From Bacteroidales bacterium (GTDB lineage: Bacteria > Bacteroidota > Bacteroidia > Bacteroidales > UBA4417), in NCBI GenBank assembly GCA_016707785.1, contig JADJGZ010000011.1:75859-139858 (forward strand): a stretch of DNA of 64,000 nucleotides. The letters run 5' to 3'. The position numbers were made by a program, and so were the translations under genes. The notes beneath the pieces are model-generated. The model had not been told where the DNA came from. It ran no database searches and saw only the letters and a list, made by a program, of their open reading frames with translations. Positions 14,350 through 63,655 of the stretch are shown here, in pieces; the stretch's first letter is position 1; each line of letters opens with the position of its first letter.

Positions 14350-14493
14350 GCAGATGTTTTTTTACCGAAAGAAAAAAAATGATCATTCGGAGTATTTGTT
14401 CAAAATTACCTAAAAATGCTATAAAAAAAGAAAATATTGATAACGCAAAGGTTATAGTAAAACCTAAACTATTGAAGCAAAGCAGAATGTAGA

Positions 14494-14868
14494 TTAAACA
14501 AGATTAAACTGGTAGAATAAAGAATTGAACTCTTCAAAGCTAAAGGGTTTTTGCGCATATCCATCCACGCCGGCTTCAATACATTCTTCTTTATTAGGAT
14601 TGGTAGTGATGGCTATGATAGTCGTATGACCGCTTTTCCTGTAATCTTCTTCGATTTTTCGAATTTCTTTTACAGCTTGCAGTCCATCCAGTTCCGGCAT
14701 TTGTATATCCATGAGGATAAGGTCATACTGCCTGTTCTTGAACATACTAACAGCCTCATTTCCATTTCTGGCAACATCCACATCGTGACCTATCCTTCTC
14801 AGGTAGAACGATGTGATCTTTTCAATCATCTCATCATCCTCAGCTAACAAAATATTCAATTTTTTCAT
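14494..14868 (-). CDS. Stand-alone response-regulator receiver domain
   Basis: ILLAEDDEM...DLILMDIQMPELDG...IIAITT...DGYAQKPF. Start taken at MKKLNILL (14868). An alternative ATG lies at 14880, and the ORF track extends to 14955. Confidence 0.85.
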   Translation of the reverse strand: MKKLNILLAEDDEMIEKITSFYLRRIGHDVDVARNGNEAVSMFKNRQYDLILMDIQMPELDGLQAVKEIRKIEEDYRKSGHTTIIAITTNPNKEECIEAGVDGYAQKPFSFEEFNSLFYQFNLV

Positions 14869-14929
14869 GTTCTCAGGCATATATGTTTTAAATTCCTTTA
14901 GTTTATCGACGGGGTTGGCAGATACATAA

Positions 14930-31406: not shown

Positions 31407-31479
<73 letters not shown>

Positions 31480-31589: not shown

Positions 31590-31674
31590 GCCCGAATGGT
31601 GAAACTGGTAGACACGAAGGACTTAAAATCCTTTGGCCATTGCGGCCATGCCGGTTCGATTCCGGCTTCGGGTA
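31590..31674 (+). tRNA. tRNA-Leu (anticodon TAA), long variable arm; CCA encoded at 31675..31677
   Basis: GCCCGAATGGTGAAACTGGTAGACACG..., anticodon stem AAGGA/TCCTT with loop CTTAAAA, variable arm GGCCATTGCGGCCATGCC, T-arm GGTTCGATTCC. Confidence 0.9.
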
Positions 31675-35263: not shown

Positions 35264-35480
35264 TTTCCAGAGTTATATACCTCCAACCATGTTCAGAAAA
35301 GATAATCGTCCGGTAGAATAGAGTAATATTTTCGGGAATTATCTGCCTCATACCTGGTTTCCTTCATCCACTCGCATCTGCTTCACTTTTCTTAAGTGTA
35401 AGCTAGAAATTCTCAATAACTGGAAATCCCGGTCAATATTGGTCTTTTCATAATTTATCATACCCTAAAACAAACAGAAT

Positions 35481-38846: not shown

Positions 38847-38940
38847 TAAAACATGATTCATTATGCTTTTCCATCCGTGAAAAGCAGAATATCATGACAC
38901 TAAAATTTTGAGAACGAACTTTTTAATGAGATTAACCCCT

Positions 38941-40464: not shown

Positions 40465-40616
40465 CCTTGCGTATCTTTAGGTAAGATGCTTTGAATAATG
40501 TATTTCGAAAGACAAAACTCATTCATGCTAACAAAGCGCATTTTACCATACAGATATTTGAACCAATATTAACAAGCAAACCCTTAATTCATTAACCTTA
40601 AAAAACCAATCAAATT

Positions 40617-43385
40617 ATGAAAAAAACTTTACTAAGTTTAGTCATAATACTAGCTTTTGCCAGTTTTTCAAGTGCCCAGGTGCCTGACAGAGCAGGCTGG
40701 TGGAAATTTGACGATGCTGCAGATATGTTAAAGGCTGAAACAGGTATGGCTTTAGCTTTAACCGGCACACAGGTTTCTGTCCCAGGTCCCGTTGCAGGAA
40801 ACCTGGCTACTCAAATTTCATTAGGAAGTTACCTTACCATGACGCATGGAATTTCCGCCAATGGTGGAGGTGACTCAGTAAATGAATACACTGTTCAAAT
40901 TGACTTTTCATTGCCTGAAGTAAGCATATGGCATGCATTTTTTCAAACCAACCCATCCAATAGTGGTGATGCTGACTTGTTTACAAGAGCCAGTGATAAT
41001 ACGATAGGGACAGCAGCCACAGGATACTCTGCAAATGCTGTAACTGCGGATACCTGGTACAGGATGATCATTTCAGTAAAAAATAGTGAATTCTTCAATG
41101 TCTATCTGAATGGTGAACTTTGGTTAACCGGCACACCTCAGGATATTGATGGAAGATGGGCCCTGGTAAGTGATCTGTTGATTTTTGCCGATGATGATGG
41201 TGATGATGCCACGATTAACTGCGCTGAATTAGGAATTTGGAATGTTGCCCTCAGTGCTGCACAGGCTTCAGAACTCGGAAACGCAACAACTGAACCTCTT
41301 GCAATGAGAAAAGGTTGGTGGAAGTTCGATGATGTAACCGACCTACTTAAAGCTGAGATTGGTTCACCCCTCACCTTAACCGGTTCTCATGCCTCGGTTT
41401 CAGGTCCTGCAGAAGGAAACCTGGCAACACAGGTACCTTTGGGAAGCTATTATTCCATGACGCATAATATTTCGGCTAATGGCGGAGGTGATTCAGTAAA
41501 TGAATACTCAGTTTTGATCGATTTTTCTGTCCCTGATATCGGAATATGGCATGCTTTCATCCAGACTAATCCTACAAATACCGGCGACGCAGATTTATTC
41601 ACCAAAGCCAGTGACAATACAATTGGCACATCAGCAACCGGGTATTCAACCAATTCAATTGGAAAAGATGCATGGTACCGTATGATTATTTCTGTCAAAA
41701 ACGGGGAATTTTTCAATGTATATCTTAACGGAGACCTGTGGTTAACAGGAACCCCGCAGGATGTTGATGGCAGATGGGCATTAGTAAACGAATTATTGAT
41801 TTTTGCCGATGATGATGGAGACGATGCACCGATCAACTGTGCAGAACTGGCCATCTGGGATGTAGCTTTAACTGCTGACGAAGCCCTTCAATTAGGTGGT
41901 TTTGCCGGGAACATCTTAGTCAGCCAGATTAATGTAACAGGTACCGGTGGTGCAAATGTAATCAACACTCAAAGCGGAACCCTGCAAATGCTTGCTGAGG
42001 TGCTGCCTGCAGATGCTACTGATAAAACCGTGACATGGTCTGTAACTAATGGCACCGGTGAAGGAACTATCAGTACCGATGGTTTACTCACAGCTGTTAA
42101 AAACGGAACTGTTACCGTTACTGCCACATCAAATGATGGAAGTAATATTACGGGAAGCATGGAAGTCACAATCTCAAATCAGGCAATTATTTTGGTAACC
42201 TCAATCACTGTAACCTCTGAGAGCGGCGCAACCACTATAAGTACCAAAGGTGGCACTCTCCAGATGATCGCTACAATCCTTCCTGAAAACGCTACGGAAA
42301 AAGACGTTACCTGGTCGGTTTCAAAGGTATCGGGTGATGCGACAATCACAACCGGCGGACTTCTTGCTGCCGTAGCTGATGGAACAGTAACTGTTATTGC
42401 CACTTCTACTGATGGCGGAAACATTATCGGAAGCCTGGGAATTACCATCTCTAACCAGACTACCATTCGCGAAAGAGTTGGATGGTGGAAATTTGATGAT
42501 GCGACTGATATGGTAAAAGCAACCATCGGTCAACCACTTGTGCTCACCGGTACTCAAACCTCAATAAATGGCCCTATAGCAGGTAACCTGGCTACAATGG
42601 TTCCTCTAGGCAGCTACCTTGACATGAACCACGGTATTGCCCCTAACGGTGGTGGATCACTTGTAAATGAATGGTCACTTCAGATTGACTTCTCAGTTCC
42701 AATGATTGATACATGGTATGCTTTTTTCCAGACACTGGATGGAGATGCCGATTTATTTGTTGCAAAAACCGAAGCTCCTGATATAGGCCGCGTTCCCAAT
42801 AGCATTGGCTGTGGATCCACCAGATATTCTGAAGCTATTATTTCAGATAATACCTGGTACAGGATGTTGGTTTCAGTACAGAATGATGTCTCCTTCAGAA
42901 TATATATTGATGGTGAACTATGGTTGGATGCAGCCCCTCAGCCTCTGGATGACAGGTATGGTTTAAGTCCGATACTTCAGATATTCCAGGATGATGATGG
43001 TGACGATGGTGACATTAATTGCTCTGAATTAGGAATCTGGAATGTTGCCTTAACTGAAGCTGAAGCGATTGCTTTAGGAAATGCTACAACTACTAACGGA
43101 ATAAATGACCTCAACAGTAGCAGATATAATGACTTGGGTCACAATTATCCTAACCCTTGTTCAACCCACACAACCTTCCCCTATAAAATGCAGGAAAATG
43201 GAAATGTCACATTCCATATCTTTGATCTGGCAGGGATTGAAATCGCTCAAATAAATGAAGGTGTAAAGTCACCGGGTGAATATAAACTTGAGATAAATAG
43301 CGGTAATCTTAAAAGTGGAGTTTATACAGTTACTATGATCACTAATGAGCGCACAAGTGTTCAGAAGATGATTGTTTTAAAATAA
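40617..43385 (+). CDS. T9SS cargo protein: LamG-like x2, Big_2 x2, LamG-like x1, C-terminal sorting domain
   Basis: 922 aa. There are three ~200-aa modules, each starting GWWKFDD and ending ...IFADDDGDD..INCAEL.IW.VAL. Two Ig-like group-2 domains (GTLQM.A.VLP..AT.K.VTWSV...). CTD NYPNPC...GVYTVTMITNERTSVQKMIVLK. Confidence 0.8.
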   Translation: MKKTLLSLVIILAFASFSSAQVPDRAGWWKFDDAADMLKAETGMALALTGTQVSVPGPVAGNLATQISLGSYLTMTHGISANGGGDSVNEYTVQIDFSLPEVSIWHAFFQTNPSNSGDADLFTRASDNTIGTAATGYSANAVTADTWYRMIISVKNSEFFNVYLNGELWLTGTPQDIDGRWALVSDLLIFADDDGDDATINCAELGIWNVALSAAQASELGNATTEPLAMRKGWWKFDDVTDLLKAEIGSPLTLTGSHASVSGPAEGNLATQVPLGSYYSMTHNISANGGGDSVNEYSVLIDFSVPDIGIWHAFIQTNPTNTGDADLFTKASDNTIGTSATGYSTNSIGKDAWYRMIISVKNGEFFNVYLNGDLWLTGTPQDVDGRWALVNELLIFADDDGDDAPINCAELAIWDVALTADEALQLGGFAGNILVSQINVTGTGGANVINTQSGTLQMLAEVLPADATDKTVTWSVTNGTGEGTISTDGLLTAVKNGTVTVTATSNDGSNITGSMEVTISNQAIILVTSITVTSESGATTISTKGGTLQMIATILPENATEKDVTWSVSKVSGDATITTGGLLAAVADGTVTVIATSTDGGNIIGSLGITISNQTTIRERVGWWKFDDATDMVKATIGQPLVLTGTQTSINGPIAGNLATMVPLGSYLDMNHGIAPNGGGSLVNEWSLQIDFSVPMIDTWYAFFQTLDGDADLFVAKTEAPDIGRVPNSIGCGSTRYSEAIISDNTWYRMLVSVQNDVSFRIYIDGELWLDAAPQPLDDRYGLSPILQIFQDDDGDDGDINCSELGIWNVALTEAEAIALGNATTTNGINDLNSSRYNDLGHNYPNPCSTHTTFPYKMQENGNVTFHIFDLAGIEIAQINEGVKSPGEYKLEINSGNLKSGVYTVTMITNERTSVQKMIVLK

Positions 43386-49687: not shown

Positions 49688-49800
49688 AACATGCCTTTTC
49701 ACCCCTGATTTCTAATCTTATTAACCTACTTCGGACGAATTAAAATCAGTGCATGTATTAATTGGGTATATTCGTACTCTATTTCTTTGGTGGAAAAATT

Positions 49801-51177
49801 ATGTTCGTAGCAGAAGTTGTTTACAACCTTTTAGGGTTGCTGGCACTTAGTGTGCTCTCTGGATTCATATCATCAAGGTATGATAAGAAAAAACTTGTCG
49901 GCAAAATATTGCAGGGAATTATCTTCGGTTTTATCGCCGTTGCTGGCATGATGTTTCCATATGTCCTTAAAGCCGGATTAATTTTTGACGGAAGGTCAAT
50001 TGTAATCAGTCTGTGTACGCTCTTTTTCGGTCCATTACCTGGGTTTATTTCTACCTTCCTTGCATTAGGTTACCGAATTTACATCGGAGGTGCCGGTATT
50101 TTGATGGGGAGTAGTGTAATCGTAAGTTCATTTTTGATAGGATACCTGTTTTACTATTTAAGAAAAAACATGAGATTCAGGGTAACGACCCTGAATATCT
50201 ATTTTTTCGGCTTATTTGTTCATCTGGCAATGATGTTTTCTATGTTTTTACTCCCTCTGTCATTCAGAAGAGAAACTTTCAACTTGTTGACCTTTTCAAT
50301 TATGGGCATTTACCCATTTATTACTTTACTAATTGGAAAAATTCTTTTTGATCAGGAACAAAAACAGGTGGTTTTTACCCTGATCAAAAATAAAGAAGCC
50401 TCAATGCGTGCAACATTATATAGTATTGCTGATGCTGTCATCACAACGGATACTTTCGGAAGCATAATGCAGATGAATAAAGAAGCTGAAGAATTGACCG
50501 GTTGGAAGGAAGAAGAAGCCCAGGGAAAAGATCTGGATGATGTGTATCAAATTTATAATGAAGACACCGGAGACAGGCTTGAATCACCGAAATCGCGAAT
50601 TCAGACAAAAATTCCATCCATTTGGCAAAATGGACATTCATATTTAAAATCCAGAAATACAATTTTTAAACCAATAGCTGAAAGTATTTCTCCTATAATT
50701 GATGACTCAGGTGAAATTGTGGGGATGGTTATTGTATTCAGAGATCAGTCACTTGAACGAAAAAAAATCCAGGAATTGGAAGAGAGCAATCTTTTATTCT
50801 CAACCACTTTCCATTTTAGTCCGGTTCCAATGCTGCTGGTAGCAGTCGATGACGGAGTATTCCATGATGTAAACACGATGTTTTTGGATGAAACCGGGTA
50901 TACACGTGATGAGGTTATTGGACAAAACTCTGTCCAGCTCAACCTATACTTCGACCTTAATGATCGTATAAACATGATCGACAAGATAAGATCTGAAGGA
51001 AAAGCATATGGTTTACCCTTTATCTTGAGAATAAAAGATGGCTCATTAAAACACTGCCTCCTTTCTTCTAACATTATCAAGATTAATGGTCGTGAATTCT
51101 ACCTTACGACTATGTTAAACATAAGTCAGAAAAAAAGAGATGACCAAATCAGGCATATGCATTCAATCTTGCAATGA
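49801..51177 (+). CDS. Sensor module: 5TM LytS-type membrane domain + two PAS domains, with no kinase core
   Basis: Hydrophobic N-terminal ~200 aa, then PAS-like segments (ATLYSIADAVITTD...GWKEEEAQGKDL; FHFSPVPMLLVAV...TGYTRDEVIGQNS). Ends at a TGA that is in frame with the next ORF. Confidence 0.7.
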   Translation: MFVAEVVYNLLGLLALSVLSGFISSRYDKKKLVGKILQGIIFGFIAVAGMMFPYVLKAGLIFDGRSIVISLCTLFFGPLPGFISTFLALGYRIYIGGAGILMGSSVIVSSFLIGYLFYYLRKNMRFRVTTLNIYFFGLFVHLAMMFSMFLLPLSFRRETFNLLTFSIMGIYPFITLLIGKILFDQEQKQVVFTLIKNKEASMRATLYSIADAVITTDTFGSIMQMNKEAEELTGWKEEEAQGKDLDDVYQIYNEDTGDRLESPKSRIQTKIPSIWQNGHSYLKSRNTIFKPIAESISPIIDDSGEIVGMVIVFRDQSLERKKIQELEESNLLFSTTFHFSPVPMLLVAVDDGVFHDVNTMFLDETGYTRDEVIGQNSVQLNLYFDLNDRINMIDKIRSEGKAYGLPFILRIKDGSLKHCLLSSNIIKINGREFYLTTMLNISQKKRDDQIRHMHSILQ

Positions 51178-52998
51178 ATGATTTCATCTGCATCTATGGC
51201 TGATTTCTTTAAAGTTATGAAAAATGAATTGGGAGTATTGGTAGATACAACCAACTTCATATTCGCTTTATATGAAGAAAAGAATGATATGCTTACTGCC
51301 CCTTTTATGGAGGATGAGAAAGATGAAATTGCCCCAACCTGGTCGGCAGCAAGGTCCTTAACTGGCTATGTAGTGAAGCAGGGCAAAACTGTGCTGTTGA
51401 ATAAAGCTGAAATCTCTAAACTTGCAGCAGAAAGTATTATTGACATTATTGGAACCCCTGCAGAATGCTGGCTTGGGGTACCCCTGATCAGCAGTAAAAA
51501 AGTGCTTGGTGTGATTGTCATTCAGAGCTATTCCGATCAAAATGCATTCACTCAGCTCGGAATTGAAATTTTGGAAACCGTTGCAAAGCAATTCACCGTT
51601 TACATCGAGAAAAAACAGATAGAAGAAGAATCTCTCATACTTTCCAAAGCTGTAGTTCAAAGCCCGGTAACAATTGTTATTACAGATCTAAACGGATCAA
51701 TTGAATATGTGAATCCAAAATTTACAGAGCTAACCGGTTATACTCTTAAGGAAGCATTTGGCAAGAATCCGAGGATATTAAAATCCGGAGAACAGTCCTC
51801 AGATTTCTATAAAGAATTATGGGATACGATATCTTCAGGAAAAGAATGGCATGGAGAATTCCACAATAAGAAAAAGGATGGTGAGCTATTTTGGGAATCT
51901 GCAATCATAGCACCTATTATCGATTCCAATAATAAAATTACACATTATGTAGCTCTTAAAGAAGATGTTACCGAAAAGAAAAGATTACTTCTTGAGCTTA
52001 TTTCTGCAAAAGACAGGGCAGAGCATGCAGATAAACTGAAGACATCCTTCTTGCAGAATATGTCACATGAAATCCGCACCCCTTTAAACGGGATTCTCGG
52101 TTTTGCACATTTACTTAACAGGGAAAATATTACTACCGAAAATATCCGTCAATATGCACATGTGATTCAAACCAGTGGAAACAGGTTATTGGAACTTATA
52201 AATAATCTAATTGATATCTCCAAAATTGAATCAGGAACTTTAGAAGTCACCATGAAGGAATTTGAACTCAATAATTTAATTTATAGTGTTTCAGATCAAT
52301 TTAAACCTTTGTCGGCTTCAAAAGGAGTAATGCTGAAAGTTGCATTAGAACCAAGGTCTAAAGAGATCAATATTATTTCTGATGAATTAAAAATACATCA
52401 AATTTTAACCAACTTGATAAACAACGCATTCAAGTTTACAAAAGAAGGAAGCGTTGAAGTTGGATATTCACTGGTTGTGGATAAGATTTCATTTTATGTG
52501 AAAGACACAGGCCCAGGGATTTCTGAAGAAAATCAAACGAAAATATTTGAAAGATTCTTCCAGATAGATTCCTCCATGACCAGGGGATATGAAGGTTCAG
52601 GCCTGGGATTATCTATCTGTAAAGGCCTCGTCGAAATGCTCAAAGGAGAGATATGGGTGGAATCAGTCCTTAACCAGGGGACAATATTTCATTTCACAAT
52701 TCCTTTAATTGAAGGGAAACCTTTGGTAATTAGCGAAGCAAGCCCGGAAGTAAAACCGGTATTCAAATATAAAAGCATATTAATTGCTGAAGATGATGAA
52801 TATAGTTTCCTCTATTTACAGGAAATCTTCAACAACTTTAATGTTCTGATTACACGGGCAACTAACGGCCAGGATGCAGTCGATACATGTAAATCCAGAA
52901 AGGATATTGACCTGGTTATGATGGATATCAAGCAAAAATGGCGCATCGCCTCTGCCTCATCGCTCACTGCATCCACCAGAAACAAGCGCTGGAAGTAG
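51178..52998 (+). CDS. GAF-PAS-HisKA-HATPase_c hybrid histidine kinase with degraded C-terminal receiver
   Basis: H-box SHEIRTPLNGILGF, N-box LINNAFKFT, DTGPGI, GSGLGLSI. The receiver starts ILIAEDDEYS...DLVMMDIK and then loses similarity. No TM segment and no N-terminal sensor of its own. Confidence 0.8.
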   Translation: MISSASMADFFKVMKNELGVLVDTTNFIFALYEEKNDMLTAPFMEDEKDEIAPTWSAARSLTGYVVKQGKTVLLNKAEISKLAAESIIDIIGTPAECWLGVPLISSKKVLGVIVIQSYSDQNAFTQLGIEILETVAKQFTVYIEKKQIEEESLILSKAVVQSPVTIVITDLNGSIEYVNPKFTELTGYTLKEAFGKNPRILKSGEQSSDFYKELWDTISSGKEWHGEFHNKKKDGELFWESAIIAPIIDSNNKITHYVALKEDVTEKKRLLLELISAKDRAEHADKLKTSFLQNMSHEIRTPLNGILGFAHLLNRENITTENIRQYAHVIQTSGNRLLELINNLIDISKIESGTLEVTMKEFELNNLIYSVSDQFKPLSASKGVMLKVALEPRSKEINIISDELKIHQILTNLINNAFKFTKEGSVEVGYSLVVDKISFYVKDTGPGISEENQTKIFERFFQIDSSMTRGYEGSGLGLSICKGLVEMLKGEIWVESVLNQGTIFHFTIPLIEGKPLVISEASPEVKPVFKYKSILIAEDDEYSFLYLQEIFNNFNVLITRATNGQDAVDTCKSRKDIDLVMMDIKQKWRIASASSLTASTRNKRWK

Positions 52999-53322: not shown

Positions 53323-54078
53323 TCATTTTACTACAATGGCATCCTCAATCAATATCTTATAAAAATAACCAGAACCAAAGTCCTTATTCAACCTGACAAT
53401 TCCGGAGAAAACTACTGTACTGCCAATTGTCACACTGTCCTGGGTAGAAAGGGCAAGATCAAAATTCCCGGCAAATTCGCTCCCATCTTGAATGTGCACC
53501 CAGTTTTTACCCATTATTTGAGAACTGAAATGGGTTACCTGACCTTTGACCTTGATACTTTTCCCGGCATACCTGGGATGGAATTCGTATAATTCCGCAA
53601 TACTAACACCACCTTTTACCTTTTCAACCTGGATATCAGTCCTTCGGGTCTCTGGTTGTTTCCGAGGCGGAGTTGCCCCCTGTGGCATAGCGTTATCAGA
53701 CATAGATCCCGGTTGGGGCTTCCCAAGCATATCAGGGCTTTCACTTACCTGCTGGACAAAATAAACCTTGTCAAATGTTTTCCCCAACTCTTTACTTGCA
53801 AAATTCTTCATTTCCAAAGCATTGGAAAAATAGAGTGTGACTCCTTCAGAAATATCCTGTCTGGAAATAGCAATCCAATACTCCGACTTCCCCTCTTCAA
53901 CAAGCAGGTAAGTATACTTAGTAGTTTGTGTAACACTTTGTACTTCAACCTGATGGATTCCTTCAGCAAGAGGATCAGAAACAGTTAATTTTTTCCCTGT
54001 ATTCCAAAAAGGAATAGTAATCAGGAATATACCCGCCAGGATAAGAATGGCAAAAATTATATTTTTTTTATTTTTCAT
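53323..54078 (-). CDS. N-terminally anchored protein of unknown function, two beta-rich (OB-like?) halves joined by a Pro/Gln linker
   Basis: 251 aa. MKNKKNIIFAILILAGIFLITIPF anchor. Last gene of the cytochrome cluster, 10 nt after the barrel gene. Confidence 0.6.
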   Translation of the reverse strand: MKNKKNIIFAILILAGIFLITIPFWNTGKKLTVSDPLAEGIHQVEVQSVTQTTKYTYLLVEEGKSEYWIAISRQDISEGVTLYFSNALEMKNFASKELGKTFDKVYFVQQVSESPDMLGKPQPGSMSDNAMPQGATPPRKQPETRRTDIQVEKVKGGVSIAELYEFHPRYAGKSIKVKGQVTHFSSQIMGKNWVHIQDGSEFAGNFDLALSTQDSVTIGSTVVFSGIVRLNKDFGSGYFYKILIEDAIVVK

Positions 54079-54088
54079 CGATTCTGGT

Positions 54089-55705
54089 TTAAAAGCGCTG
54101 AGTCAGACTGAGATAAACCCTCTCATAATTCCTGCTTTTTTCAAATGTACCTTCAACGTTAACAGAGAAATTGAGTTTTTTCATCATCCTCCAGGTAAGA
54201 TTTAACTCAGCCATATTTTGAACCAAAGGTGTTTCAGCACTAAGGAACTTGTATTTTACCCATCGGTAATTCACGCCTCCATAAAGTTTACCTGGCAATA
54301 AATCTCTCGACAATCCGGCACTATAGATACTGCTTGAAAGATAACCTGTTTCAAGAAATGTCGCCGAAATTGTTGCGGCAGCTTTCAGCCAGGGCACATT
54401 ATTATAAGTTGCATAACCATACACATTTTTTGAGGGGTTTGGATCCTGTTTATTGGTCCTGTACCCTGCATTCACTCCAAAAGTCAGGTTCTTGAGAGGA
54501 CGATAATTGATTTGAGCCATATACCCCTGTGTACTTGCTTCTTCGAGTAATCTATCAATAATATCCTTATAGGTTTCATAATAGATGATGTTCTTCCTTG
54601 AACTATAGGAGAGTGACATTGAAACCTGTTTTGAAAACTTATAACGGGCCGTGAAGTACATATTTGATAACTTCAGTTTCTGATCAGCGGAATAGGAACT
54701 GTCCTGAGTATTCCTGGATTTGTTGAACAGGTCAGCTTCCAATGACCCGAAGAGAAAAAGTCCGGGTATAAGGTTGTTCGTGTGTTGAAAATAGGCAAAC
54801 CTTCGGTCAGTTAAACCTTTATTTTTCTGCTCAACAAGGGCAATTGAATTTTGCATGGTCTTATCACCAGAATGATAATCATGTGCCAGGTATCCGCCCA
54901 TTTGCAGTAAAGAGGGATTAAAACTGTAATTTATATAGTCTGGTCTTGATCCTCCTACCAACCCTGCACTGAATGATTTTAACTTTAACTCAACCTGGGC
55001 CCCATCGATAGCGCCAGCATTCGACAACCTGGCATTAATTTTACGTCCTACCCAAACTTTTACTTTCTTATTAAACTCGTAACTCAGTGCCAGGTTATAA
55101 ATCTTCAGTCCGTTGAAAACATCATTCTTTATCTCACCCCATTCATTTAATCGGTGCACAAAACTGATGTAGGTCTCGCCTGAAAGATTGGAACCACCAA
55201 TATTAACAGCATTCATGGAAAAATTATACCGCATTCGCTGTGAAAAGTCAGAAACATTGGAGAAATTGGAATAGGATGCCAATGCAATTCGTCCGCTTAT
55301 GCGCTGTGTGGGTTCAGTATTGATACTATCCTTTGCAGGAGTATTTGTTGTTTTGGCTACCGGTGTTGCAGGAGGTACGATGTTCTCTATTTTATTAACA
55401 GGGATATTATCACGTGTCACTTTCCCGGAAACCTTATCCCCGACAGAATATTTGTCACTTCCAACAGGAACACAAACACAGGAAATAGAGGATAACTCAC
55501 TAACAATCAATGCCGGAATAAAATTATTTGCTTTGATCCTGTAAAGGGTATCACCTGCTTTAATTCCATCGGTAGTTTCGAATTTTACATATATGTTCTG
55601 AGAAGTAGTATATGATATAACACCTTCAACAAAAGAAGACAACTCCTGGCCTGAAATGTTATTTCCAAGTATAAGTACAATAATTATAAGCAGTAATTTC
55701 TTCAT
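54089..55705 (-). CDS. Putative outer-membrane beta-barrel protein (porin-like partner of the multiheme cytochrome)
   Basis: 538 aa. Signal peptide MKKLLLIIIVLILGNNISGQ, a ~130-aa N-terminal soluble domain, then alternating-hydrophobic strands rich in Y/N/G/S, and a terminal ...LSLTQRF (C-terminal Phe). Starts 10 nt after the cytochrome frame ends. Confidence 0.6.
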   Translation of the reverse strand: MKKLLLIIIVLILGNNISGQELSSFVEGVISYTTSQNIYVKFETTDGIKAGDTLYRIKANNFIPALIVSELSSISCVCVPVGSDKYSVGDKVSGKVTRDNIPVNKIENIVPPATPVAKTTNTPAKDSINTEPTQRISGRIALASYSNFSNVSDFSQRMRYNFSMNAVNIGGSNLSGETYISFVHRLNEWGEIKNDVFNGLKIYNLALSYEFNKKVKVWVGRKINARLSNAGAIDGAQVELKLKSFSAGLVGGSRPDYINYSFNPSLLQMGGYLAHDYHSGDKTMQNSIALVEQKNKGLTDRRFAYFQHTNNLIPGLFLFGSLEADLFNKSRNTQDSSYSADQKLKLSNMYFTARYKFSKQVSMSLSYSSRKNIIYYETYKDIIDRLLEEASTQGYMAQINYRPLKNLTFGVNAGYRTNKQDPNPSKNVYGYATYNNVPWLKAAATISATFLETGYLSSSIYSAGLSRDLLPGKLYGGVNYRWVKYKFLSAETPLVQNMAELNLTWRMMKKLNFSVNVEGTFEKSRNYERVYLSLTQRF

Positions 55706-55715
55706 CTACTGATTA

Positions 55716-58700
55716 CTAGTTACTTCTAATGAAATTTCTGATCATTTGATCATTGCCATTTGGATGGCAATTCAAACAAGCAGCACTGTTGTATGAATAC
55801 CCGCTTACTCCCTGGTGGTCATTATTGGTTGAACTCTGAGGATGGCAGGAAGTGGTGCAAGTAAATACAGAGTAATTGGTTGAGTTGGGATGGCAATCAG
55901 AACAAGTGTTCCATTCTCCATTGTGATTTCCGGAATAGATAGGGAAATATTGGTCGTCGTGGTCAAAGGTAGATGGCTGCCATGCTGTTTGAGTGTGGCA
56001 ATCCTCACAGGTAGTTGGGAATTGAGCCGAAACATGGTTAGGGTCATTGGTCTGGTTGTATTCGTTAATATGACAACCGGAACAGGTGTTAGGAGTGTTT
56101 GTATAATTACCGTTATGGCAATCAGAACACTGATTCGCAATAGCAAGATGGGCACCCTTGAGTACATAATAGTTATTATGGATGGGGAAGGTGGCTGGAG
56201 CCCAGCCGGGGTTAGTGGTATGGCAGGTTGCACATTCATTGGGAATGGCCAATGAAACATGGTTAGGATTTGTCGCCTGGTTATAATTGTTCTGGTGACA
56301 TCCTTCGCAGGTATTCGGAGTATTACTGTAACCGTTGGCGTGACACTGCACACAATTGGTTGCAATGGTTGCATGTGCCCCGGTTAATGGATAGGTGGAA
56401 TTATGGTCAAAGGTTGAAGGAACCCATGCAGTCTGTGTATGGCAATCCTGGCAGGTTGTGGCAAATTGGGAAGCCACATGGTTAGGATTGGTTGTCTGGT
56501 TATAATTGTCAATATGACAACCGTCGCAGGTATTGGGAGTAGTGTTATAATTACCATTATGACAGGTGGCGCACTGATCTGCCAGAGGAATATGAGCCCC
56601 TTCCAGCACATAGTAATTATTATGAATTGGGAAACTGGCAGGCGCCCAACCTGGATTTGTCGTGTGACAGCTCGCACATTCATTGGGAATTGCCAGGGAT
56701 ACATGGTTGGGATTAGTAGCCTGCGTATAATTGTTCTGATGGCAACCCTCACAGGTGTTGGGGGTATTGTTATAGCCGTTGGAATGGCACTGCACACAAT
56801 TTGATGCGATCGTAGCATGCGCACCGGTCAAAGGATAGGTATTGTCATGATCGAACGTTGAAGGCACCCAGGCAGTCTGGGTATGGCAATCCTGGCAGGT
56901 GGTGGCAAATTGAGAAGTTACAGTTGCTGGGGGTGTGAAGCTACATGGTTCGGATTTGTGGTCTGGTTATAATTGTCAATATGGCATCCATCACAGGTAT
57001 TGGGGGTAGAATTATAATTCCCATTATGACAATCTGCACATTGTGAAGCTATGGCAACATGAGCACCTTGAAGTGCATAATAGTTGTTATGCACGCTGAA
57101 AGTAGCGGGAGCCCAACCCGGAGCGGTAGTATGACAGCTTGCACAGTCATTTGAGAGACTAAGTGAGGTATGGCTGGGGTTTGCTGACTGATTGTAGTCG
57201 TTGATATGGCAACTGGAACATTCGCTGGATGTACCTGCATATCCATTCGATGGCAGCTGGCACAATCAGTACCGGCATGACCTCCTGTTAAATGGAATGG
57301 AGAAGTATTGTGGTTGAAACTACCGGCTGAGTTCCCATCAGGATGGCAGGCAAGACAAGCTTCAGTTGTGTAAACATACCCCCCTACTCCCTGGTGTTCA
57401 TTGTTAGTGGAATTCTGCTGGTGACAGGAAGATGTACAGGTTACTACTTTATAATTACCTGGATTGGTATGACAGTCGGAACATTGATCCCATTCTCCCT
57501 GGTTTTGTCCTGAATAAATAGGGAAAATATTGTCCGTCATGGTTAAATGTTGCGGGTGTCCAGGATGCTTGCGAATGGCAATCAGCACAGGTAGTCGGGA
57601 ATTGAGCAGTAGAATGTGACGGATCATTCGTCTGGTTGTATTCATCAATATGACATCCTGAGCAGGTATTTGGAGTGTTGGTGTAGCTCCCCTGGTGACA
57701 GGAGGCACAATCATTTCCAATTCCAGCATGTGCACCTTCAAGTACATAATAATTACTATGTGTCGGGAAAGTAGCCGGCGACCAACCCGGACCCGTAGTA
57801 TGACATACCGCACAATCATTGGAGATTCCTATTCCGGTATGGTTAGGGTTGGTGGTCTGATTATAATTATTGGTATGACAACTGGCGCAAACTGTAGAAG
57901 TATTAGTATATTTGTTTGCATGACAGCTATTGCAATCGTCAACAGCATGCCCTCCGGTTAATGGAAATGCTGAAGTATTGTGGTCGAAACTGCCCTGTGA
58001 ATTACCTGCGGGATGGCATTCGAAACAGGCTATACTATTATACGCATATCCTCCAACCCCCTGGTGCTCGTCATCCATATCGGGTTGGTTGTGATCATGA
58101 CAATCAATGCAACTGAATACTTTAAAATTCCCTGGATTGGTATGGCATTCAGAGCAATCATTCCATTCACCCTGGTGACTTCCTGAATAAATAGGAAAAT
58201 ACTGTCCATCGTGATTGAAAGTTGAGGGCGTCCAGGCATTCACATTATGACAATCCTCACAGGTTGTCGGAAACTGGGCTGCAGCATGTGAAGGGTCGTT
58301 TGACTCATTATAATCAGCTGCATGGCATCCAAAACAAGTATTTGGTGTATTGGTATAATTCCCTTTATGACAGGAAAAACAATCATTCGCAATTGACTGA
58401 TGAGCTCCCAATAACGGATAAACTGTATTATGATTAGGAAAGATGCTGGTTTCCAATCAGGAAGAGTTGTAGGGCAGGTTCCACAATCATTTCCAATGCC
58501 GGATGCAATATGATTTGGATTGGTTGTTTGATTATAGGCATTGGTATGACAACTGGAGCAGGTGGTTGGTGTCCCAGCATACTGGAGGTATGACAACTTG
58601 AACAGTTAGTGGTTGTATGGGCTCCCGTTAATGGAAAGCTGGTAGAATTATGGTCAAAAGCGCCATCTCCTGAACCATTTGGATGACAGCCAAAACAAGC

Positions 58701-61309
58701 GATACTATTATAAGTGTAACCGCTAACTCCTTCATGTTCATCATCTGTATCCCCCTGGTTATGCTCATGGCAATTGGTGCAGGTAAATTGAGCATAATTG
58801 GAAGGATTTGTATGACAGTCGGAACAATTATCCCATTCTCCTTTATGAGTTCCTGAATAAATAGGGAAAGACTGGGAATCATGATCTTTATATTCTGCCG
58901 GACTCCATCCCGGATTAAGATTGTGACATTGCTTGCAATCGGTTGAAAATTGTAATGTAATGTGGTTAGGACTTGCTGCAGTATTATAATCCTGCTGATG
59001 ACAGGAAACACAAGCAGCATCAATGCTGGAATATGATCCTGAGGTATGACAGGTTTTACAGTCACTGATTTCATGGCCGCCCGTAAGTGGGAAGAAATTG
59101 TGATTGATACCGGCTCGGACCATTCGAAAGAGTTTTATATTATGACATTCTTCGCAATTTGTTGAATAACCGGCTGGGTGTGATTAGGGTTCGTTGTAGA
59201 CAGGTAGTTATCTTTATGACAATCAAAACATTCAACTCCCAGGGGATCAAAACGTAATGCAGAAGCTGTTCCTAAGCCATTCGCAGCCGGTGAAAGATTA
59301 ATATGACAATCGGAACAATTCGCCTGGGTATGAGGCCCGATTAAAGGGAAACGGCTCATTTGATGCAATTGGGTAGTATTGGTAACCACCCAGGAATTAG
59401 GCGTATGACATCGGGAGCAATCAGTCCCCACAGTTTGCTCATGAATATCGATATGACATTCATTGCAATCAGTGGGAGTCTTTACAAATTCAAGGGAGGT
59501 ATGGCAATCCTTGCAGGAAACAGATTGGTGCTGCCCTACCAATGGGAATTTCGTAACACTATGATCAAAGGCTAATTTGGCAAGGTCAATCTTCCAGCCA
59601 TCCGTAGTATGGCAATCCTTGCAACTGATGGCAAAACCAGTCCCATGGGGAGATTTCTGGGCAAAATACTCCCGAAAATGATCAGTGTGAAAGGATTATT
59701 GATGACAGTCTTCGCATTTGATTTTCTTTGTTTTATAAAGGATGAAAGTTGCTTCACCAATGGTGACAGGTTGGTGGCATTTTTCACAAGGGAGGCCTGA
59801 ATGTTTGCCATCCAATGGAAATTGTGATTTGTTGTGATCAAAAGAAGCTGTTGGTTTGAAAGCTATTGAATTATGGCATTTTTTACAATCTGTCTTTCCA
59901 TTCTCGTCAAACTGCTGCCGATGAATGTCGGTATGACAGTCACTACAATTCATGGATAAATCCTTAAAAGTCTGGTTGGCATGACCCTTCACTTCCTTGT
60001 TAAAATGGCAGTCTCTGCATGTTTTGGTTTCATGTGCACCTTCAAGAATAAACTGTGTGATTTTATGATCAAATTCAACCTGATTCCAACGGCTATTCGA
60101 ATGACAGTTTTCACAATTTTCTTCAGGATAGTATTTCTCTGATATCTTGCCTGTATGAATGTTCTCATGACAGTCTTTACAATTCTTCCCGATCTCTTTA
60201 AATTTCCATTTAGTCTCTTTCTTATGGCATGAAATACAAGGTGTTGCCAGATGTGCACCTTTCAATGGAAATCCTGATGAATTATGTTTCTCAATGGTAA
60301 AAGAAGAGCCTTTGAATCCTTGCACCGAATGGCATTCAGAACAATCAGGTGAAACACCGTTCTTAACAAATTGCTTTTCGTGATAATCCGTATGACAATC
60401 AGTGCAGTGCTTATGCAGCAATGGTGTAGTAAGTTTTATCTTGTGGCACGACTTACAACTCTACTGCCTGGTGCTTGCCTTCTAATTTGAAATCTGTTTT
60501 ACTATGATCAAAATTCTTTACCCACCAACGGCTGTAAAAGACTCAGTATTATGGCATTCAGAACATTTCTGCCCAAATTTGTTATTATGAGCATCTTCAT
60601 GACAATTCGTGCAATTGGCATATTTAACTCCCTTGAATTCCTGGAATTTTACTCCATTTCTCATGGATGTTTTATGACACTCAGCACAGGCAACATCCTG
60701 ATGCCTACCAGTTAGTTTGAAGCCGGATTTCTGATGACTAAATTTAGTGGCAGGCTTGAACTTTTCATTGTCATGACAATCGGCACAACTGCTGGAAAGA
60801 GATTTCTGATGATAATCGGTATGACATGATAAGCAATCTGTCCCCATCCCGAGAAAGGTGTATTTTTTTGCCTTTATCTTGGCATCCTTTATATACTGGG
60901 GTTTATGACAATCCTCACATTTCTTTTTATTGTGGGCTCCAAGGAGTTTATAGCCGGTAAGGGCATGATTGAACTTGGTTTTATCGAAGCGGATGATTTG
61001 AAAATTAACTCCGTGATGGTCACTATGGCAGGATGCACATTGTTTCCCTTTCACCTCAGCGGATGAGTGATATCCCTTATTACTGCTGATCCTGGTCTTC
61101 AGTTCAGTATGGCAGGCCAGACACTTATCATTCGAGACTTTTTCACCCAGGATGTGACATTTGGTGCAATTTGACATTCCCTCCAGATGTGAATGCACCT
61201 TGGCAAGATCTCCCGGAGATATCTGTGATTTAACCTCAACCAAAAAGCAAAGTTGAAACAGGAATAATCCTGTCAGAAGTACTTTAAAGAGGTTAGTAGG
61301 ATAAATCAT
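55716..61309 (-). pseudogene. Giant multiheme c-type cytochrome (~1860 codons, ~69 CXXCH + 2 CXXXCH) split into at least 9 frame segments
   Basis: ORF-track pieces 60518..61309, 59696..60421, 59135..59542, 58434..59123, 58240..58596, 57455..58456, 57049..57819, 56918..57265 and 55716..56867 are collinear. They continue each other's repeat pattern but sit in different frames. Only the first piece has a signal peptide (MIYPTNLFKVLLTGLFLFQLCFLVEVKSQ). Confidence 0.8.
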
Positions 61310-61335
61310 TTCTTCAATTAATTGGACAGTTTCTG

Positions 61336-62670
61336 TTAAGTGTGTTTCAAAATGGCTTCACCAAACTTTTGGTAATCATAATTCCAGCCTTTGTAAAAAC
61401 TGGATAGGTAATTCACCCCGGCAAAAATATATACGAATTGATTGACAATATGTATCTCCTTGTCCTCCTTCAAATCCTTTAGCAACACAGATTCCTTTAG
61501 TATTTCAACCGGTGAGGTATTAAAGAGTACCCTTACTTTGCCAGAAGATGAAGCCATACCAATTCTTTCGCTATTCATGGGTTTCAAACGGCTAAACGTA
61601 TCACCCCTGTATGATAAGGTTACATTATTATGGTCACAAAGAAGCAACGCTGATTCAATAGCAGAATCACCGCCTCCCACTACCATAATATCTTTACCAC
61701 TGATATCTTCGGGCTCTAATAATCTGTAGGCTACCTTTTCCAGCATTTCACCCGGAACCCCTAGCTTTCGTGGAGTACCTCTCCGGCCAATGGCGATTAA
61801 AACCGTTTTGGTTGAAAGTTTTTCGCCTGCCTGTGTTTCAACCAGAAAATGGTTATTCTCCTTATGAATGGCTTCCACTTTAGTATTTTCCCGGATAGTA
61901 AGCTGATTTTTCCCTAATGCGTTTTGCCATAAATCCAGGAGTTCGGTTTTACTGGTTTCAAATAGTTTGACCTTTCCAAAAAGTGGTAAGTCCATGGCTG
62001 AGGTCATTACAATTTTTTGCCTGGGAAAGGTATAAACTGTCCCTCCAAGTGTGTCCTGTTCCAGGGTCAGAAACTTTAAGTTGTGCTTTTTAGCTGTCAG
62101 GGAAGCTGAAATACCAGCCGGGCCTGCCCCGATTATAATCAAATCATAGGTAGCATCATGACTTCCCCTGAGTGTTCTGACCAGGTTGTCGACCGCCTGT
62201 TTGCCTTGTTCTACAGCATTCTTTATGAGTCCCATCCCTCCCAATTCACCGGCAATATAAATTCCATTGACATTGGTTTCAAAATTCTGATTGACATGGG
62301 GTAAATCAACACCCCGCGTTTCTGTACCAATAACTAACATGATGGCTTGTGTAGGACAGGCATGAAAGCATGCACCATGACCAATACATCTCGATGCATT
62401 AATCGTAGTGGCTTTCCCGTCTTTTATGCCAATAATGTCTTTTTCAGGACATGCAGCAACACAGGCACCGGTTTTGATACAGCTATTTGCATCAATAACC
62501 GGGTGCAGAGAGATAGGCTCAAATAATCCATCCTGTTTGGCCTTGATAATCTTCTCTTCTACTTTTTTAGATTCTCTTTTCTGCTTGCGCAGATAAATGA
62601 AAACCACGATCAGGCAGAATAATACTGCAACTGAATAAATTGCGACCTGTTCTATGAGTATTTCCATCAC
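61336..62670 (-). CDS. Membrane-anchored ferredoxin-domain + FAD/NAD(P)-binding oxidoreductase
   Basis: 444 aa. N-terminal TM helix, two Cys-rich motifs CIKTGACVAACP and CIGHGACFHACP, and dinucleotide folds DLIIIGAGPAGISA and DIMVVGGGDSAIESA. Confidence 0.8.
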   Translation of the reverse strand: MMEILIEQVAIYSVAVLFCLIVVFIYLRKQKRESKKVEEKIIKAKQDGLFEPISLHPVIDANSCIKTGACVAACPEKDIIGIKDGKATTINASRCIGHGACFHACPTQAIMLVIGTETRGVDLPHVNQNFETNVNGIYIAGELGGMGLIKNAVEQGKQAVDNLVRTLRGSHDATYDLIIIGAGPAGISASLTAKKHNLKFLTLEQDTLGGTVYTFPRQKIVMTSAMDLPLFGKVKLFETSKTELLDLWQNALGKNQLTIRENTKVEAIHKENNHFLVETQAGEKLSTKTVLIAIGRRGTPRKLGVPGEMLEKVAYRLLEPEDISGKDIMVVGGGDSAIESALLLCDHNNVTLSYRGDTFSRLKPMNSERIGMASSSGKVRVLFNTSPVEILKESVLLKDLKEDKEIHIVNQFVYIFAGVNYLSSFYKGWNYDYQKFGEAILKHT

Positions 62671-63535
62671 TCAGAATATCCATCTGTAACCAAAAACGAT
62701 AGTGACTCCGACATGAATCACCATAATCACCAGCATTACAAGAGCAAAAGGTAAATGTGCTACATGCCAGTATTTAAATAGGTTCTGCATGGTAACCAGG
62801 CGCTCTATGCGTCGGTTCAGGGAGATTTCATTGTTTACCAACCTGATTACTTGTTTACGTTCTGCTTTGGGTATCTTATTGCTTCTCAGCACATTTTTAC
62901 ACTACGTAGCGCTTTCTTATCCTGTATGTAACGTTTCAATGTACGTGAAAACACATTGCCCTGAAAACGACTGATCTTTGAACGGGTAGAGGCGACAATC
63001 AATTCAAAACTGCCTTCATCCAGCTGTACCGATTGATTTAAGGCTGCTCCAATATCCCCTTTCATATCTCTTATTTCATTCAGACTCAATTCCCGGCCTT
63101 CTATGCTCCTGGGAATTTGAATGTAAATAAATCTTCCGATGATTCCACTAAGAAAACAGCTACCATACTCCAGAAACTGATGGCAACAATACCACCGAAT
63201 TTGAAGGAGGTATGGAATAAAACCAGGATTGGACCTAATGTACATAAAAGATGTGAAATTCAAGCCAATGCTTCAAAAGGCCTAACCTTGAAAATATCCT
63301 GTACCTTTTTCGGGCCATATACAGAATGACTCAAAAATCATGAATAAAGAACCAATGATCCCGATTCCATGACCAAGAATGCCACTGGGTTTGAGTATGG
63401 AATGATCCGGATGGAAAGCTCTCTCTTCCATGCTGGTAATATAGTAAGCGTATCCCTTCATGAAAAGGGCAACCAGGCAACGATCACAATTAATGAAAGA
63501 GTTACCAGGTAGATTCTGTGAGCTGTTTTAGTCAT
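62671..63535 (-). pseudogene. His-rich polytopic membrane protein (possible heme-b/quinone-side module), multiply frameshifted
   Basis: Track pieces 62671..62892 and 62886..63263 are in different frames. My translation upstream needs about 3 further shifts to read MTKTAHRIYLVTLSLIVIVAWLPF / FMKGYAYYITSMEERAFHPDHSILKPSGILGHGIGIIGSLFMIF / VILYMARKRYRIFSRLGLLKHWLEFHIF / LCTLGPILVLFHTSFKFGGIVAISFWSMVAVF / SGIIGRFIYIQIPRS... / LRSNKIPKAERK...LFKYWHVAHLPFALVMLVIMVIHVGVTIVFGYRWIF. Confidence 0.6.
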
Positions 63536-63592: not shown

Positions 63593-63600
63593 CAAATTTA
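63593..63600 (-). promoter_or_regulatory. Candidate -7 promoter box (TAAATTTG on the minus strand) for the cytochrome cluster
   Basis: The plus strand reads caaattta. It lies ~58 nt upstream of the ATG at 63535. Confidence 0.3.
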
Positions 63601-63634: not shown

Positions 63635-63655
63635 AATTTAGAATTATTCTAAATT
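63635..63655. promoter_or_regulatory. Perfect 10-1-10 palindrome AATTTAGAAT-T-ATTCTAAATT upstream of the cytochrome cluster
   Basis: Inverted repeat read directly. It lies ~35-55 nt upstream of the candidate -7 box, in an AT-rich non-coding region. Confidence 0.4.

Follow-up and report, generated by a model that had tools for sequence, protein, structure and literature searches.

A candidate NAD(P)H-fed porin–cytochrome conduit with its own inner-membrane module in Bacteroidota

To our knowledge, the characterised routes of extracellular electron transfer (EET) draw their electrons from the quinone pool, and most of what is known of them comes from Proteobacteria and Desulfuromonadota. The gene order porin, periplasmic cytochrome and outer cytochrome has served as an operational definition with which novel porin–cytochrome complexes (PCCs) are found, and putative novel clusters of this kind have been reported in metagenome-assembled genomes (MAGs) of Bacteroidetes (PMC6344600). 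A Lentimicrobium MAG, reported as recovered only from incubations with conductive carbon, carries a ‘giant PCC cluster’ composed of a porin and adjacent 61- and 20-haem cytochromes (Nat Commun 2026, PMC13013709), and Labilibaculum manganireducens reduces Mn oxide while fermenting (PMC5760507). Here, a cluster is described from the minus strand (positions 53323–63535) of a 64,000-nt stretch of a Bacteroidales genome (contig JADJGZ010000011.1; the whole stretch is hereafter the window), in which a porin–cytochrome arrangement is preceded by genes for an oxidoreductase and a membrane protein. The reading that we prefer, and hold to be a little more probable than its negation, is that the cluster encodes a trans-envelope electron conduit that is fed by cytoplasmic NAD(P)H and independent of quinones, and that its copy in the window is broken most likely by consensus errors of long-read sequencing.

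An earlier note, made from the sequence of the window alone, had placed the genes on the minus strand with short gaps, and the open reading frame (ORF) listing and a three-frame map agree, with junctions of 3–26 nt or an overlap of 22 nt. In the direction of reading, a membrane-protein gene (62671–63535) is followed at ~3 nt from its stop by the ATG of an oxidoreductase gene (61336–62670) and, 26 nt further on, by cytA (59696–61309), which overlaps cytB (55716–59717) by 22 nt; after 10 nt comes the gene of a 538-aa outer-membrane protein, the barrel (54089–55705), and after another 10 nt that of a 251-aa protein (53323–54078). The two ORFs at the 3’ end of the region, of 251 and 538 aa, are intact. 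The 5.6 kb between 55716 and 61309 hold 69 CxxCH motifs in about nine ORF pieces spread over three frames, and no single giant cytochrome ORF is present. The single cytochrome of ~70 haems that the earlier note had described is in intact relatives the product of two genes, one for a 20-haem CytA and one for CytB. All parts of the five-gene list in that note are indeed present, but the list merged the two cytochrome genes and counted the 251-aa gene as core; judged by comparison among loci, the conserved core is five genes, for the membrane protein, the oxidoreductase, CytA, CytB and the barrel, with the 251-aa gene as an accessory. The His-rich motifs quoted from the membrane protein do exist, though not all in one reading frame, the frameshifts having been overlooked. 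A Pfam scan recovered Cytochrome_C7/c3-type domains on the cytochrome pieces and no match for the 538-aa, 251-aa or membrane-gene pieces of the window, and an NCBIfam scan placed none of the cluster proteins in a curated family, the best match being YpdA (143 bits, cut-off 340).

The arrangement recurs well beyond the window. One genome per GTDB species was scanned and 220 of the 394 candidate stretches were found to encode a relative, of which the best 80 were kept; gene order was counted across 83 related loci. On the contigs of relatives the neighbourhood consists of a 289–298-aa protein without a Pfam match, the oxidoreductase, a ~535-aa cytochrome, a 727–1327-aa cytochrome, a ~540-aa protein without a Pfam match and, at times, a ~246-aa protein. 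The membrane gene is immediately upstream of the oxidoreductase in every one of the 83 loci, and the barrel gene lies 2.6–9.2 kb downstream of the oxidoreductase in 57 (in several of the others the sequence stops a few kb or less from the oxidoreductase, so that the barrel cannot be scored). Exactly two cytochrome ORFs separate oxidoreductase and barrel in 51 of these 57 loci, and starting instead from a barrel homologue in a Salinivirgaceae MAG recovered the same five genes. The generic gene order of porin–cytochrome systems, a barrel gene adjacent to and co-oriented with genes for multihaem cytochromes with signal peptides (20 and 49 CxxCH motifs in the window), is thus present and conserved in 57 loci. 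The comparison, with its 83/83 adjacency and the two cytochromes and barrel downstream, supports the porin–cytochrome logic that had been proposed and the presence of what would be a dedicated inner-membrane input module. The co-occurrence of oxidoreductase, membrane protein and barrel with multihaem cytochromes had been suggested as a check on that proposal and is confirmed by the gene neighbourhoods; of the outcomes that the earlier note said would count against it none was seen, the 538-aa protein being modelled as a barrel, the genes occurring together in other genomes, and the oxidoreductase/membrane pair falling into no curated family.

The cluster is widespread in Bacteroidota and is not peculiar to the genome of the window. 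Carriers among the best 80 include Bacteroidales MAGs, Saprospiraceae, Vicingus, Mariniphaga and Prolixibacteraceae, and two isolates possess the cluster, Draconibacterium aestuarii Z1-6 and Labilibaculum sp. K2S (a Labilibaculum genome other than that of L. manganireducens is locus L036). The oxidoreductase alone has thousands of close homologues, with identities of 69–93% among the 120 best, and the few that are named derive from Bacteroidales or Bacteroidota MAGs.

The proposed entry point for electrons is the 444-aa oxidoreductase, identified by its ORF and Pfam matches, which begins with a transmembrane (TM) helix and continues with a ferredoxin-like domain and a thioredoxin reductase (TrxR)-like domain for flavin adenine dinucleotide (FAD) and NAD(P)H. 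The bulk of the protein is placed in the cytoplasm because a basic stretch follows the N-terminal TM helix. Thresholds were passed for Pyr_redox_3 (1e-42), Pyr_redox_2 and the 4Fe-4S Fer4 families, and the TM anchor, Cys motifs and FAD/NAD(P) folds recognised beforehand all hold. The TM helix also contains an invariant Cys18. Bacterial ferredoxins with two [4Fe-4S] clusters are defined by two CxxCxxCxxxCP motifs with eight Cys ligands; here, the invariant motifs are C63xxT66xxC69xxxC73P and C94xxH97xxC100xxxC104P, with six invariant Cys and an invariant His97, an atypical pattern that suggests one 3-Cys cluster and one His-ligated cluster. In the flavin part both dinucleotide-binding motifs are present and there is no conserved CxxC, the redox-active motif that a thioredoxin reductase has in its NADPH domain. 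The solved structures most similar to the protein are those of YpdA/Bdr (E 9e-24), of thioredoxin reductases and of TrxR-type ferredoxin-NADP reductases, and of the corresponding families only the Pyr_redox_3/2 fold family was reached, the scores for thioredoxin reductase (TIGR01292; 88.3 vs 343 bits) and for the bacillithiol-disulfide reductase YpdA (TIGR04018; 143.4 vs 339.9 bits) remaining far below their cut-offs. The oxidoreductase thus is a flavoprotein of the TrxR fold, and its most plausible role is to shuttle electrons between NAD(P)H and its own iron–sulfur (Fe-S) clusters and not to reduce disulfides.

The membrane gene occupies four frame pieces in the window and was read against the intact genes of two related loci, L004 and L084. 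The intact protein has 289 aa, and the helices of its structural model suggest five TM segments with a ~115-residue helical cytoplasmic insert between TM4 and TM5. Six histidines (H56, H95, H109, H259, H262 and H276) do not vary among 42 close homologues. When 1.8 billion cluster representatives were searched with a profile, 3045 families were returned at E<=1e-3, 320 of them at E<=1e-30, and in 101 full-length representatives (27–58% identity to the reference) four of the six remain conserved, H95 in 99%, H109 in 100%, H262 in 93% and H276 in 95%, with the other His residues variable. The pairs H95/H109 and H262/H276 are each 14 residues apart, are among the best-conserved positions and lie in TM3 and TM5, which run parallel from cytoplasm to periplasm according to the positive-inside rule and the model helices. 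H95 and H262 would form a bis-His site near the cytoplasmic face, and H109 and H276 a second one near the periplasmic face. Two His pairs on parallel TM helices are the arrangement of cytochrome b and ferric-reductase domains, and the feature by which ferric reductases and NADPH oxidases (NOX) are recognised, two such pairs ~13–14 residues apart, is present in the membrane protein, for which haem binding is predicted; the pattern is that expected for a dihaem b cytochrome.

Matches of the membrane protein to known families are faint. DUF4405 (PF14358) matched below threshold (15.5 and 13.5 bits vs 26.7; E 0.025) and over no more than the last TM helix, although binding of haem b has been shown for this family (PMC11334425). 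Ferric_reduct (PF01794) gave no match to the intact 289-aa protein at E<=1 in the Pfam scan, a Foldseek search of the model against the PDB found nothing below E 0.2, and phmmer against the PDB found nothing relevant. Kinship with the PF01292 cytochrome b encoded next to the cluster in locus L001 was considered and rejected, as hhalign shows no relation.

Of the two cytochromes, CytA is nearly constant and CytB is highly variable. In the window, cytA encodes a protein of ~537 aa with a signal peptide, predicted to be periplasmic, whose 20 CxxCH motifs are counted as 9 + 11 and which is collinear with CytA of L001 (72% identity). Across the 57 loci CytA (~535 aa) has 20 CxxCH motifs in 49, and 16, 19 or 23 in the remainder. 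The cytB frame pieces, joined through a tblastn chain, are collinear with residues 19–1327 of the 1327-aa CytB of L001, the closest relative with an intact copy, in seven frame segments and amount to ~1330 aa after repair, with 49 CxxCH motifs readable. CytB counts across loci are 13, 16, 22, 25, 28, 31, 34, 37, 46, 50, 66 or 85, and thus vary mostly in steps of three, because the spacing of the motifs repeats as 15/25/35 aa, a 75-aa trihaem module. A tandem repeat of 444 nt (2.2 copies, 55960–56917) within cytB of the window agrees with such modules. The largest form, a ~2140-aa CytB with 85 haems, occurs in the Saprospiraceae loci L062 and L078.

Both cytochromes carry type-I signal peptides, and both are densely packed. 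In L001, CytA has 20 CxxCH motifs and 23 further His and CytB has 50 and 56, with ~26.5 aa per haem and few Met, a composition compatible with bis-His ligation throughout. Four cytochrome pieces of the window passed the cut-off for Cytochrome_C7 (PF14522; 54.0, 50.9, 49.9 and 39.0 bits vs 24.8), and the best PDB match of CytA is the dodecahaem ‘nanowire’ GSU1996 (3ov0; E 7e-5); a CytB piece had no PDB match. In GSU1996 each haem spans roughly 1 nm. The constant size of CytA fits a fixed distance such as the periplasm, and the variable length of CytB, by analogy, fits a wire that would reach outwards.

The 538-aa protein had been described as having a signal peptide, a beta-barrel-like C-terminus and a terminal Phe, and all three are recovered. 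Its AlphaFold2 model, built with 48 homologues (mean predicted local distance difference test (pLDDT) 78.8), comprises a signal peptide, a beta domain (residues 25–95), a disordered Pro/Thr-rich linker (98–129) and an outer-membrane barrel of ~22 strands from residue 135 to the C-terminal Phe. The sequence ends in TQRF, and Arg537 and Phe538 are invariant in the 48 homologues. Altogether 1582 homologues were found; the 120 listed have no Pfam domain and the few named ones are called hypothetical. Foldseek against the PDB returned outer-membrane barrels only (TM-score 0.23–0.44), namely FimD/PapC ushers, TonB-dependent transporters, porins and, at rank 22, MtrB, and Pfam and NCBIfam gave no match at E<=0.01, the MtrB/PioB models included. 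No specific family was assigned, the similarity being only generic to outer-membrane barrels, and on its model the protein is predicted to be an outer-membrane barrel of no described family. The 251-aa protein has a hydrophobic anchor at its N-terminus and two domains that a Pro/Thr-rich linker connects, with no Pfam, NCBIfam or PDB match beyond a sub-threshold match to a GW domain. Its homologue lies downstream of the barrel in some loci and divergently upstream in others and is often absent (e.g., from L002, L003 and L085); the gene is regarded as accessory because of this variable position and frequent absence.

Taken together, these parts suggest a path for electrons, every step of which is inferred. 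NAD(P)H would reduce the FAD of the membrane-anchored TrxR-like flavoprotein, from which electrons would move through two ferredoxin-type Fe-S clusters, one probably His-ligated and the other probably 3-Cys. The inner membrane would be crossed via two stacked b haems of the 289-aa protein, held by H95/H262 on the cytoplasmic side and by H109/H276 on the periplasmic side, and the 20-haem CytA would bridge the periplasm. CytB, a variable chain of c7-like trihaem modules, would then lead the electrons outwards, either inside the ~22-strand barrel or alongside it, and deliver them to acceptors that are insoluble or lie outside the cell, for example Fe(III)/Mn(IV) oxides, humics, conductive particles or partner cells. 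Because the export of electrons consumes membrane potential, such a conduit would act as a redox sink for fermenters and not as a coupling site, the likely benefit being that fermentative Bacteroidota could re-oxidise NAD(P)H. A bolder version of this proposal, that the Bacteroidota harbour a widespread quinone-bypassing EET chain akin to a split NADPH oxidase, with an Fe-S flavoprotein and a new family of dihaem b proteins, a 20-haem bridge, a single-polypeptide wire of 13–85 haems and a new family of ~22-strand barrels, is put forward tentatively and seems to us somewhat doubtful as a whole.

Whether the window itself encodes a working conduit depends on how its reading frames are interpreted. 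At least 18 single-base indels affect the membrane gene, the 3’ end of the oxidoreductase gene, cytA and cytB. Relative to the two closest genomes, L004 (JADJHD010000052, a Bacteroidales MAG; 95% protein and 89.6% nucleotide identity to the window) and L084 (JADJFO010000013, a Bacteroidales MAG; 93.8% nucleotide identity), in both of which the membrane, oxidoreductase and cytA genes are all intact, the membrane gene has five 1-nt deletions (63477, 63333, 63246, 63156 and ~62898). The oxidoreductase gene has three within 50 nt (61419, 61392 and 61370), which scramble ~18 C-terminal residues; the ORF keeps its length of 444 aa because the three deletions sum to one codon, and a plain truncating frameshift at the C-terminus was therefore rejected. 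A compensating −1/+1 pair lies in cytA (~60523 and ~60461, 60 nt apart), and cytB has at least eight frame changes, two of them inside the signal peptide. A different genetic code or programmed recoding was also rejected as the source of the in-frame stops, since cytA naturally ends with the stop at 59696 and the remaining stops arise from ±1 indels relative to intact relatives. The membrane, oxidoreductase and cytA genes together carry ten indels, nine of which are losses of one nucleotide in the window; many indels are in or beside homopolymer runs, and some are clustered so that the frame is restored. Further, cytB is fragmented, independently, in L004, L084 and L027, and L004 has a long-read-style ‘tig’ contig name while L084 and L027 look like long-read MAG assemblies. 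That the indels are residual long-read consensus errors is, in our estimate, quite likely, and for that reason the organism of the window probably has a working copy of the cluster. More generally, repetitive cytochrome genes seem to be often broken in long-read MAGs, and haem counts from such assemblies consequently need frame repair.

The alternative, that the frameshifts are real mutations and the conduit has been lost as a pseudogene cluster in the lineage of the window, draws its strength from where the indels fall. All 33 indel events relative to L084 lie between 63960 and 56805, the last 3.4 kb, with the end of cytB and the genes of the barrel and the 251-aa protein, are free of them, and the 53 kb of the window outside this region hold intact genes for DnaK, MutS, PanB, a SusC/SusD pair and others, whereas a globally error-prone assembly should give frameshifts throughout. 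The substitutions tell against decay. The ratios of non-synonymous to synonymous divergence (dN/dS) between the window and L004 are 0.066, 0.044 and 0.053 for the three comparable frameshifted genes, a range of 0.04–0.07, with ~39 non-synonymous differences in total, and ten neutral indels are estimated to accompany at least 40–150 neutral substitutions. There are no large deletions and no nonsense mutations (the stop at 59696 being the natural end of cytA), indels form frame-restoring clusters, with three deletions within 50 nt and a −1/+1 pair within 60 nt, and cytB is broken independently in three other MAGs. A true pseudogene cluster is accordingly judged unlikely.

Three other functions would account for much of the same gene content. 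The cluster could be an assimilatory ferric reductase in which electrons from NAD(P)H reduce extracellular Fe(III) to Fe(II) for uptake, like the eukaryotic FRE/FRO enzymes and apart from energy metabolism; an NAD(P)H flavoprotein paired with a dihaem membrane protein is the logic of the ferric reductase family, and some relatives have CDF, VIT1, PF01292 cytochrome b, TonB-dependent receptor or cytochrome c peroxidase genes as neighbours. These iron-linked neighbours occur only in a minority of loci (L084 and L085 lack them), no Fur-type box was recognised upstream, and 33–108 c-type haems are a large iron cost for an uptake device, which together make this role improbable. A comparably low probability is assigned to cytochromes that store electrons in the periplasm or reduce soluble oxidants there (O2, peroxide, nitrite, metalloids), with the barrel as a channel or anchor and nothing leaving the cell. 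Low-potential bis-His multihaem cytochromes do reduce many soluble oxidants non-specifically, the isolate names of the nearest MAGs suggest wastewater plants, where redox conditions fluctuate, and the surface location of CytB is only presumed; against this, barrel and cytochromes are strictly inherited together, no haem site looks catalytic, and 13–85 haems at the ~1 nm each of GSU1996 extend far beyond the width of the periplasm and suit an outward wire better. Least probable, and very much so, is a conduit that runs inwards from Fe(II), cathodes, conductive particles or partner cells to NAD(P)+. The components are reversible in principle and the porin–cytochrome systems MtoAB and PioAB run inwards in Fe(II) oxidisers, but with Fe(II) or humics as donors the reduction of NAD(P)+ (about −320 mV) is strongly uphill, inward electron flow opposes an inside-negative membrane potential with no energy-coupling subunit present, and the hosts look like polysaccharide-degrading heterotrophs with genes of polysaccharide-utilisation loci (PULs).

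Several observations weigh against the preferred interpretation, an outward conduit supplied by NAD(P)H. The link of the membrane protein to dihaem cytochromes in Pfam is sub-threshold (DUF4405, 15.5 vs 26.7 bits), and its structural model is of moderate quality (pLDDT 70) and found no neighbour among solved structures. In CytB, which has a type-I signal peptide and whose location is presumed, neither a lipobox nor a C-terminal domain of the type IX secretion system (T9SS) was seen when the sequence was read. Finally, the copy in the window is not translatable as written, and its indels are oddly confined to 56.8–63.5 kb while the rest is clean.

Upstream of the membrane gene, the palindrome TTTAGAATAATTCTAAA (63637–63653, minus strand) is kept in the window, L004, L084 and L001 as a candidate regulator-binding site. 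At least 14 of 78 loci have the form TTAGA-N6-TCTAA between −113 and −117 relative to the ATG, with 2.0 expected in shuffles, and it lies 51–52 nt upstream of a TAnnTTTG box. TAnnTTTG is the consensus of the −7 promoter element of Bacteroidota, matched in the window by TAAATTTG (63593–63600, minus strand; a pattern match at a fixed distance from the palindrome). The palindrome is probably the operator of a dedicated regulator. A sigma-70 promoter and terminator scan was uninformative, with counts near those in shuffles and a promoter type that is wrong for Bacteroidota, and Rfam found nothing near the operon, its sole matches in the window being two tRNAs (31407–31479 and 31590–31674, plus strand).

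Beside the cluster, at 49762–52998 on the plus strand, are an ORF with 5TMR-LYT and PAS domains (471 aa) and one with GAF, PAS, HisKA and HATPase domains (606 aa), which are in the same frame with one stop codon between them and may be one split sensor kinase; relative to the syntenic L084 they are inserted. Divergent neighbours upstream of the membrane gene in some of L001–L005, L015, L018 and L021 are a ~100-aa ORF, a CDF cation-efflux protein, a PF01292 cytochrome b and VIT1, and in L002 also a TonB-dependent receptor and a cytochrome c peroxidase; such neighbours, absent from L084 and L085, hint at iron handling in some relatives. The wider surroundings (22575–43385) are an ordinary polysaccharide-utilisation context for Bacteroidales, with a FecR-type anti-sigma gene at 34205–43385, after which come a SusC/SusD pair and a Big_2 protein that ends in a T9SS domain, a second T9SS-tailed protein (DUF5017; 22575–24191), and GH16, DUF5009 and purple acid phosphatase genes nearby; the T9SS- and PUL-bearing context that had been read from the window is therefore real. 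Two large ORFs at 11458–17062 on the minus strand (963 and 710 aa) have no Pfam match at E<=1e-6. A bump in GC content and GC skew at 56–58 kb was considered as a sign of horizontal transfer and rejected, as it is attributed to the composition of repetitive cytochrome coding sequence and the flanks are syntenic with L084.

If the preferred interpretation is true, a Bacteroidota conduit fed by NAD(P)H would solve the inner-membrane step of EET in another way, and fermenters could discharge reducing power onto minerals, humics, conductive particles and partner cells. A phylum that is very abundant in sludge, sediments and lakes would join the potential iron and manganese reducers and electroactive organisms. 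On the bolder version, many polysaccharide-fermenting Bacteroidota of these habitats would be electroactive, which would explain fermentative Mn/Fe reduction in the phylum. The constant CytA combined with a variable CytB would also provide a natural series for the limits on the length of a single-protein haem wire. The idea is directly testable because two cultured strains, the Draconibacterium and Labilibaculum isolates named above, carry the cluster.

The earlier note had not recognised the combination as a described system, and this is correct in part. A similar-sounding cluster has been mentioned in passing (PMC13013709; PMC6344600), whereas the oxidoreductase/membrane module, the fold of the barrel, the architecture with two cytochromes and the distribution in Bacteroidota were not found described in the literature searched. 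Judged by its description, the giant PCC cluster of Lentimicrobium very probably belongs to this family of clusters, in which CytA is constant at 20 haems and CytB varies; a few sentences are given to it, in which no treatment of the oxidoreductase and membrane genes upstream, of the fold of the barrel or of its occurrence in other genomes was seen (PMC13013709). The cluster appears to work like a porin–cytochrome conduit, yet reaches the threshold of no returned model of a known family (Mtr, NapC/NrfH, TrxR or YpdA). The Mtr decahaem families are not matched (MtrA/DmsE, TIGR03508, 24.1 vs 192.2 bits; OmcA/MtrC, TIGR03507, 15.7 vs 209.3), the barrel aligns with MtrB (6r2q_B) at a TM-score of only 0.28–0.32 in Foldseek, no better than with ushers, TonB-dependent transporters and porins, and NrfH reached 20 bits against 134 on a CytA piece, with no NapC/NirT-type model among the returned matches for any cluster ORF.

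As in MtrCAB, MtoAB and PioAB of Shewanella and Fe(II) oxidisers, a barrel gene stands beside genes for multihaem cytochromes with signal peptides, a cytochrome is presumed to be threaded through the barrel, and MtrB is among the Foldseek matches. Mtr differs in having a 26-strand barrel and 10 + 10 haems, compared with ~22 strands, an extra N-terminal beta domain and 20 + 13–85 haems here, and in being fed by the quinol dehydrogenase CymA; the cluster has no NapC/CymA homologue. The OmaB-OmbB-OmcB and ExtABCD/EFG/HIJKL systems of Geobacter are likewise independent modules of a porin with a periplasmic and an outer multihaem cytochrome, but neither homology nor synteny could be detected, no lipobox was recognised in the presumed outer cytochrome of the cluster, and the Geobacter PCCs are fed from menaquinol via ImcH, CbcL or CbcBA in place of an NAD(P)H-type Fe-S flavoprotein and a His-rich membrane protein. 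Within the cytochromes, the likeness is to GSU1996-type proteins (TIGR04257; 3ov0), as both CytA and CytB are chains of c7-like trihaem modules with ~26 aa per haem; GSU1996 is a periplasmic protein of 12 haems, whereas there are 20 and up to 85 here, encoded next to a barrel gene, and TIGR04257 was below threshold (32.8 vs 40 bits).

For the input module, the Hmc, Tmc and Qmo complexes of sulfate reducers resemble the cluster in composition, as a multihaem cytochrome of the periplasm is encoded together with a membrane subunit that carries b haem and with an Fe-S or flavo-Fe-S subunit in the cytoplasm; the module is homologous neither to them nor to the NOX/FRE enzymes. They lack an outer-membrane barrel, and the cluster in turn lacks a NarI/HdrE- or NrfD-type subunit, shows no CCG domain and scores far below HmcA (24 vs 400 bits) and QrcA (17 vs 180 bits). 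The NOX, FRE and STEAP proteins are unlike the cluster in their parts, as here the flavoprotein is a separate TrxR-fold protein with an Fe-S domain in place of a fused FNR-fold domain, and the membrane protein has five TM segments and a ~115-residue insert. In design alone they are alike, with a flavoprotein that would deliver electrons to two b haems on His pairs ~14 residues apart, from the cytoplasm to the outside without a quinone.

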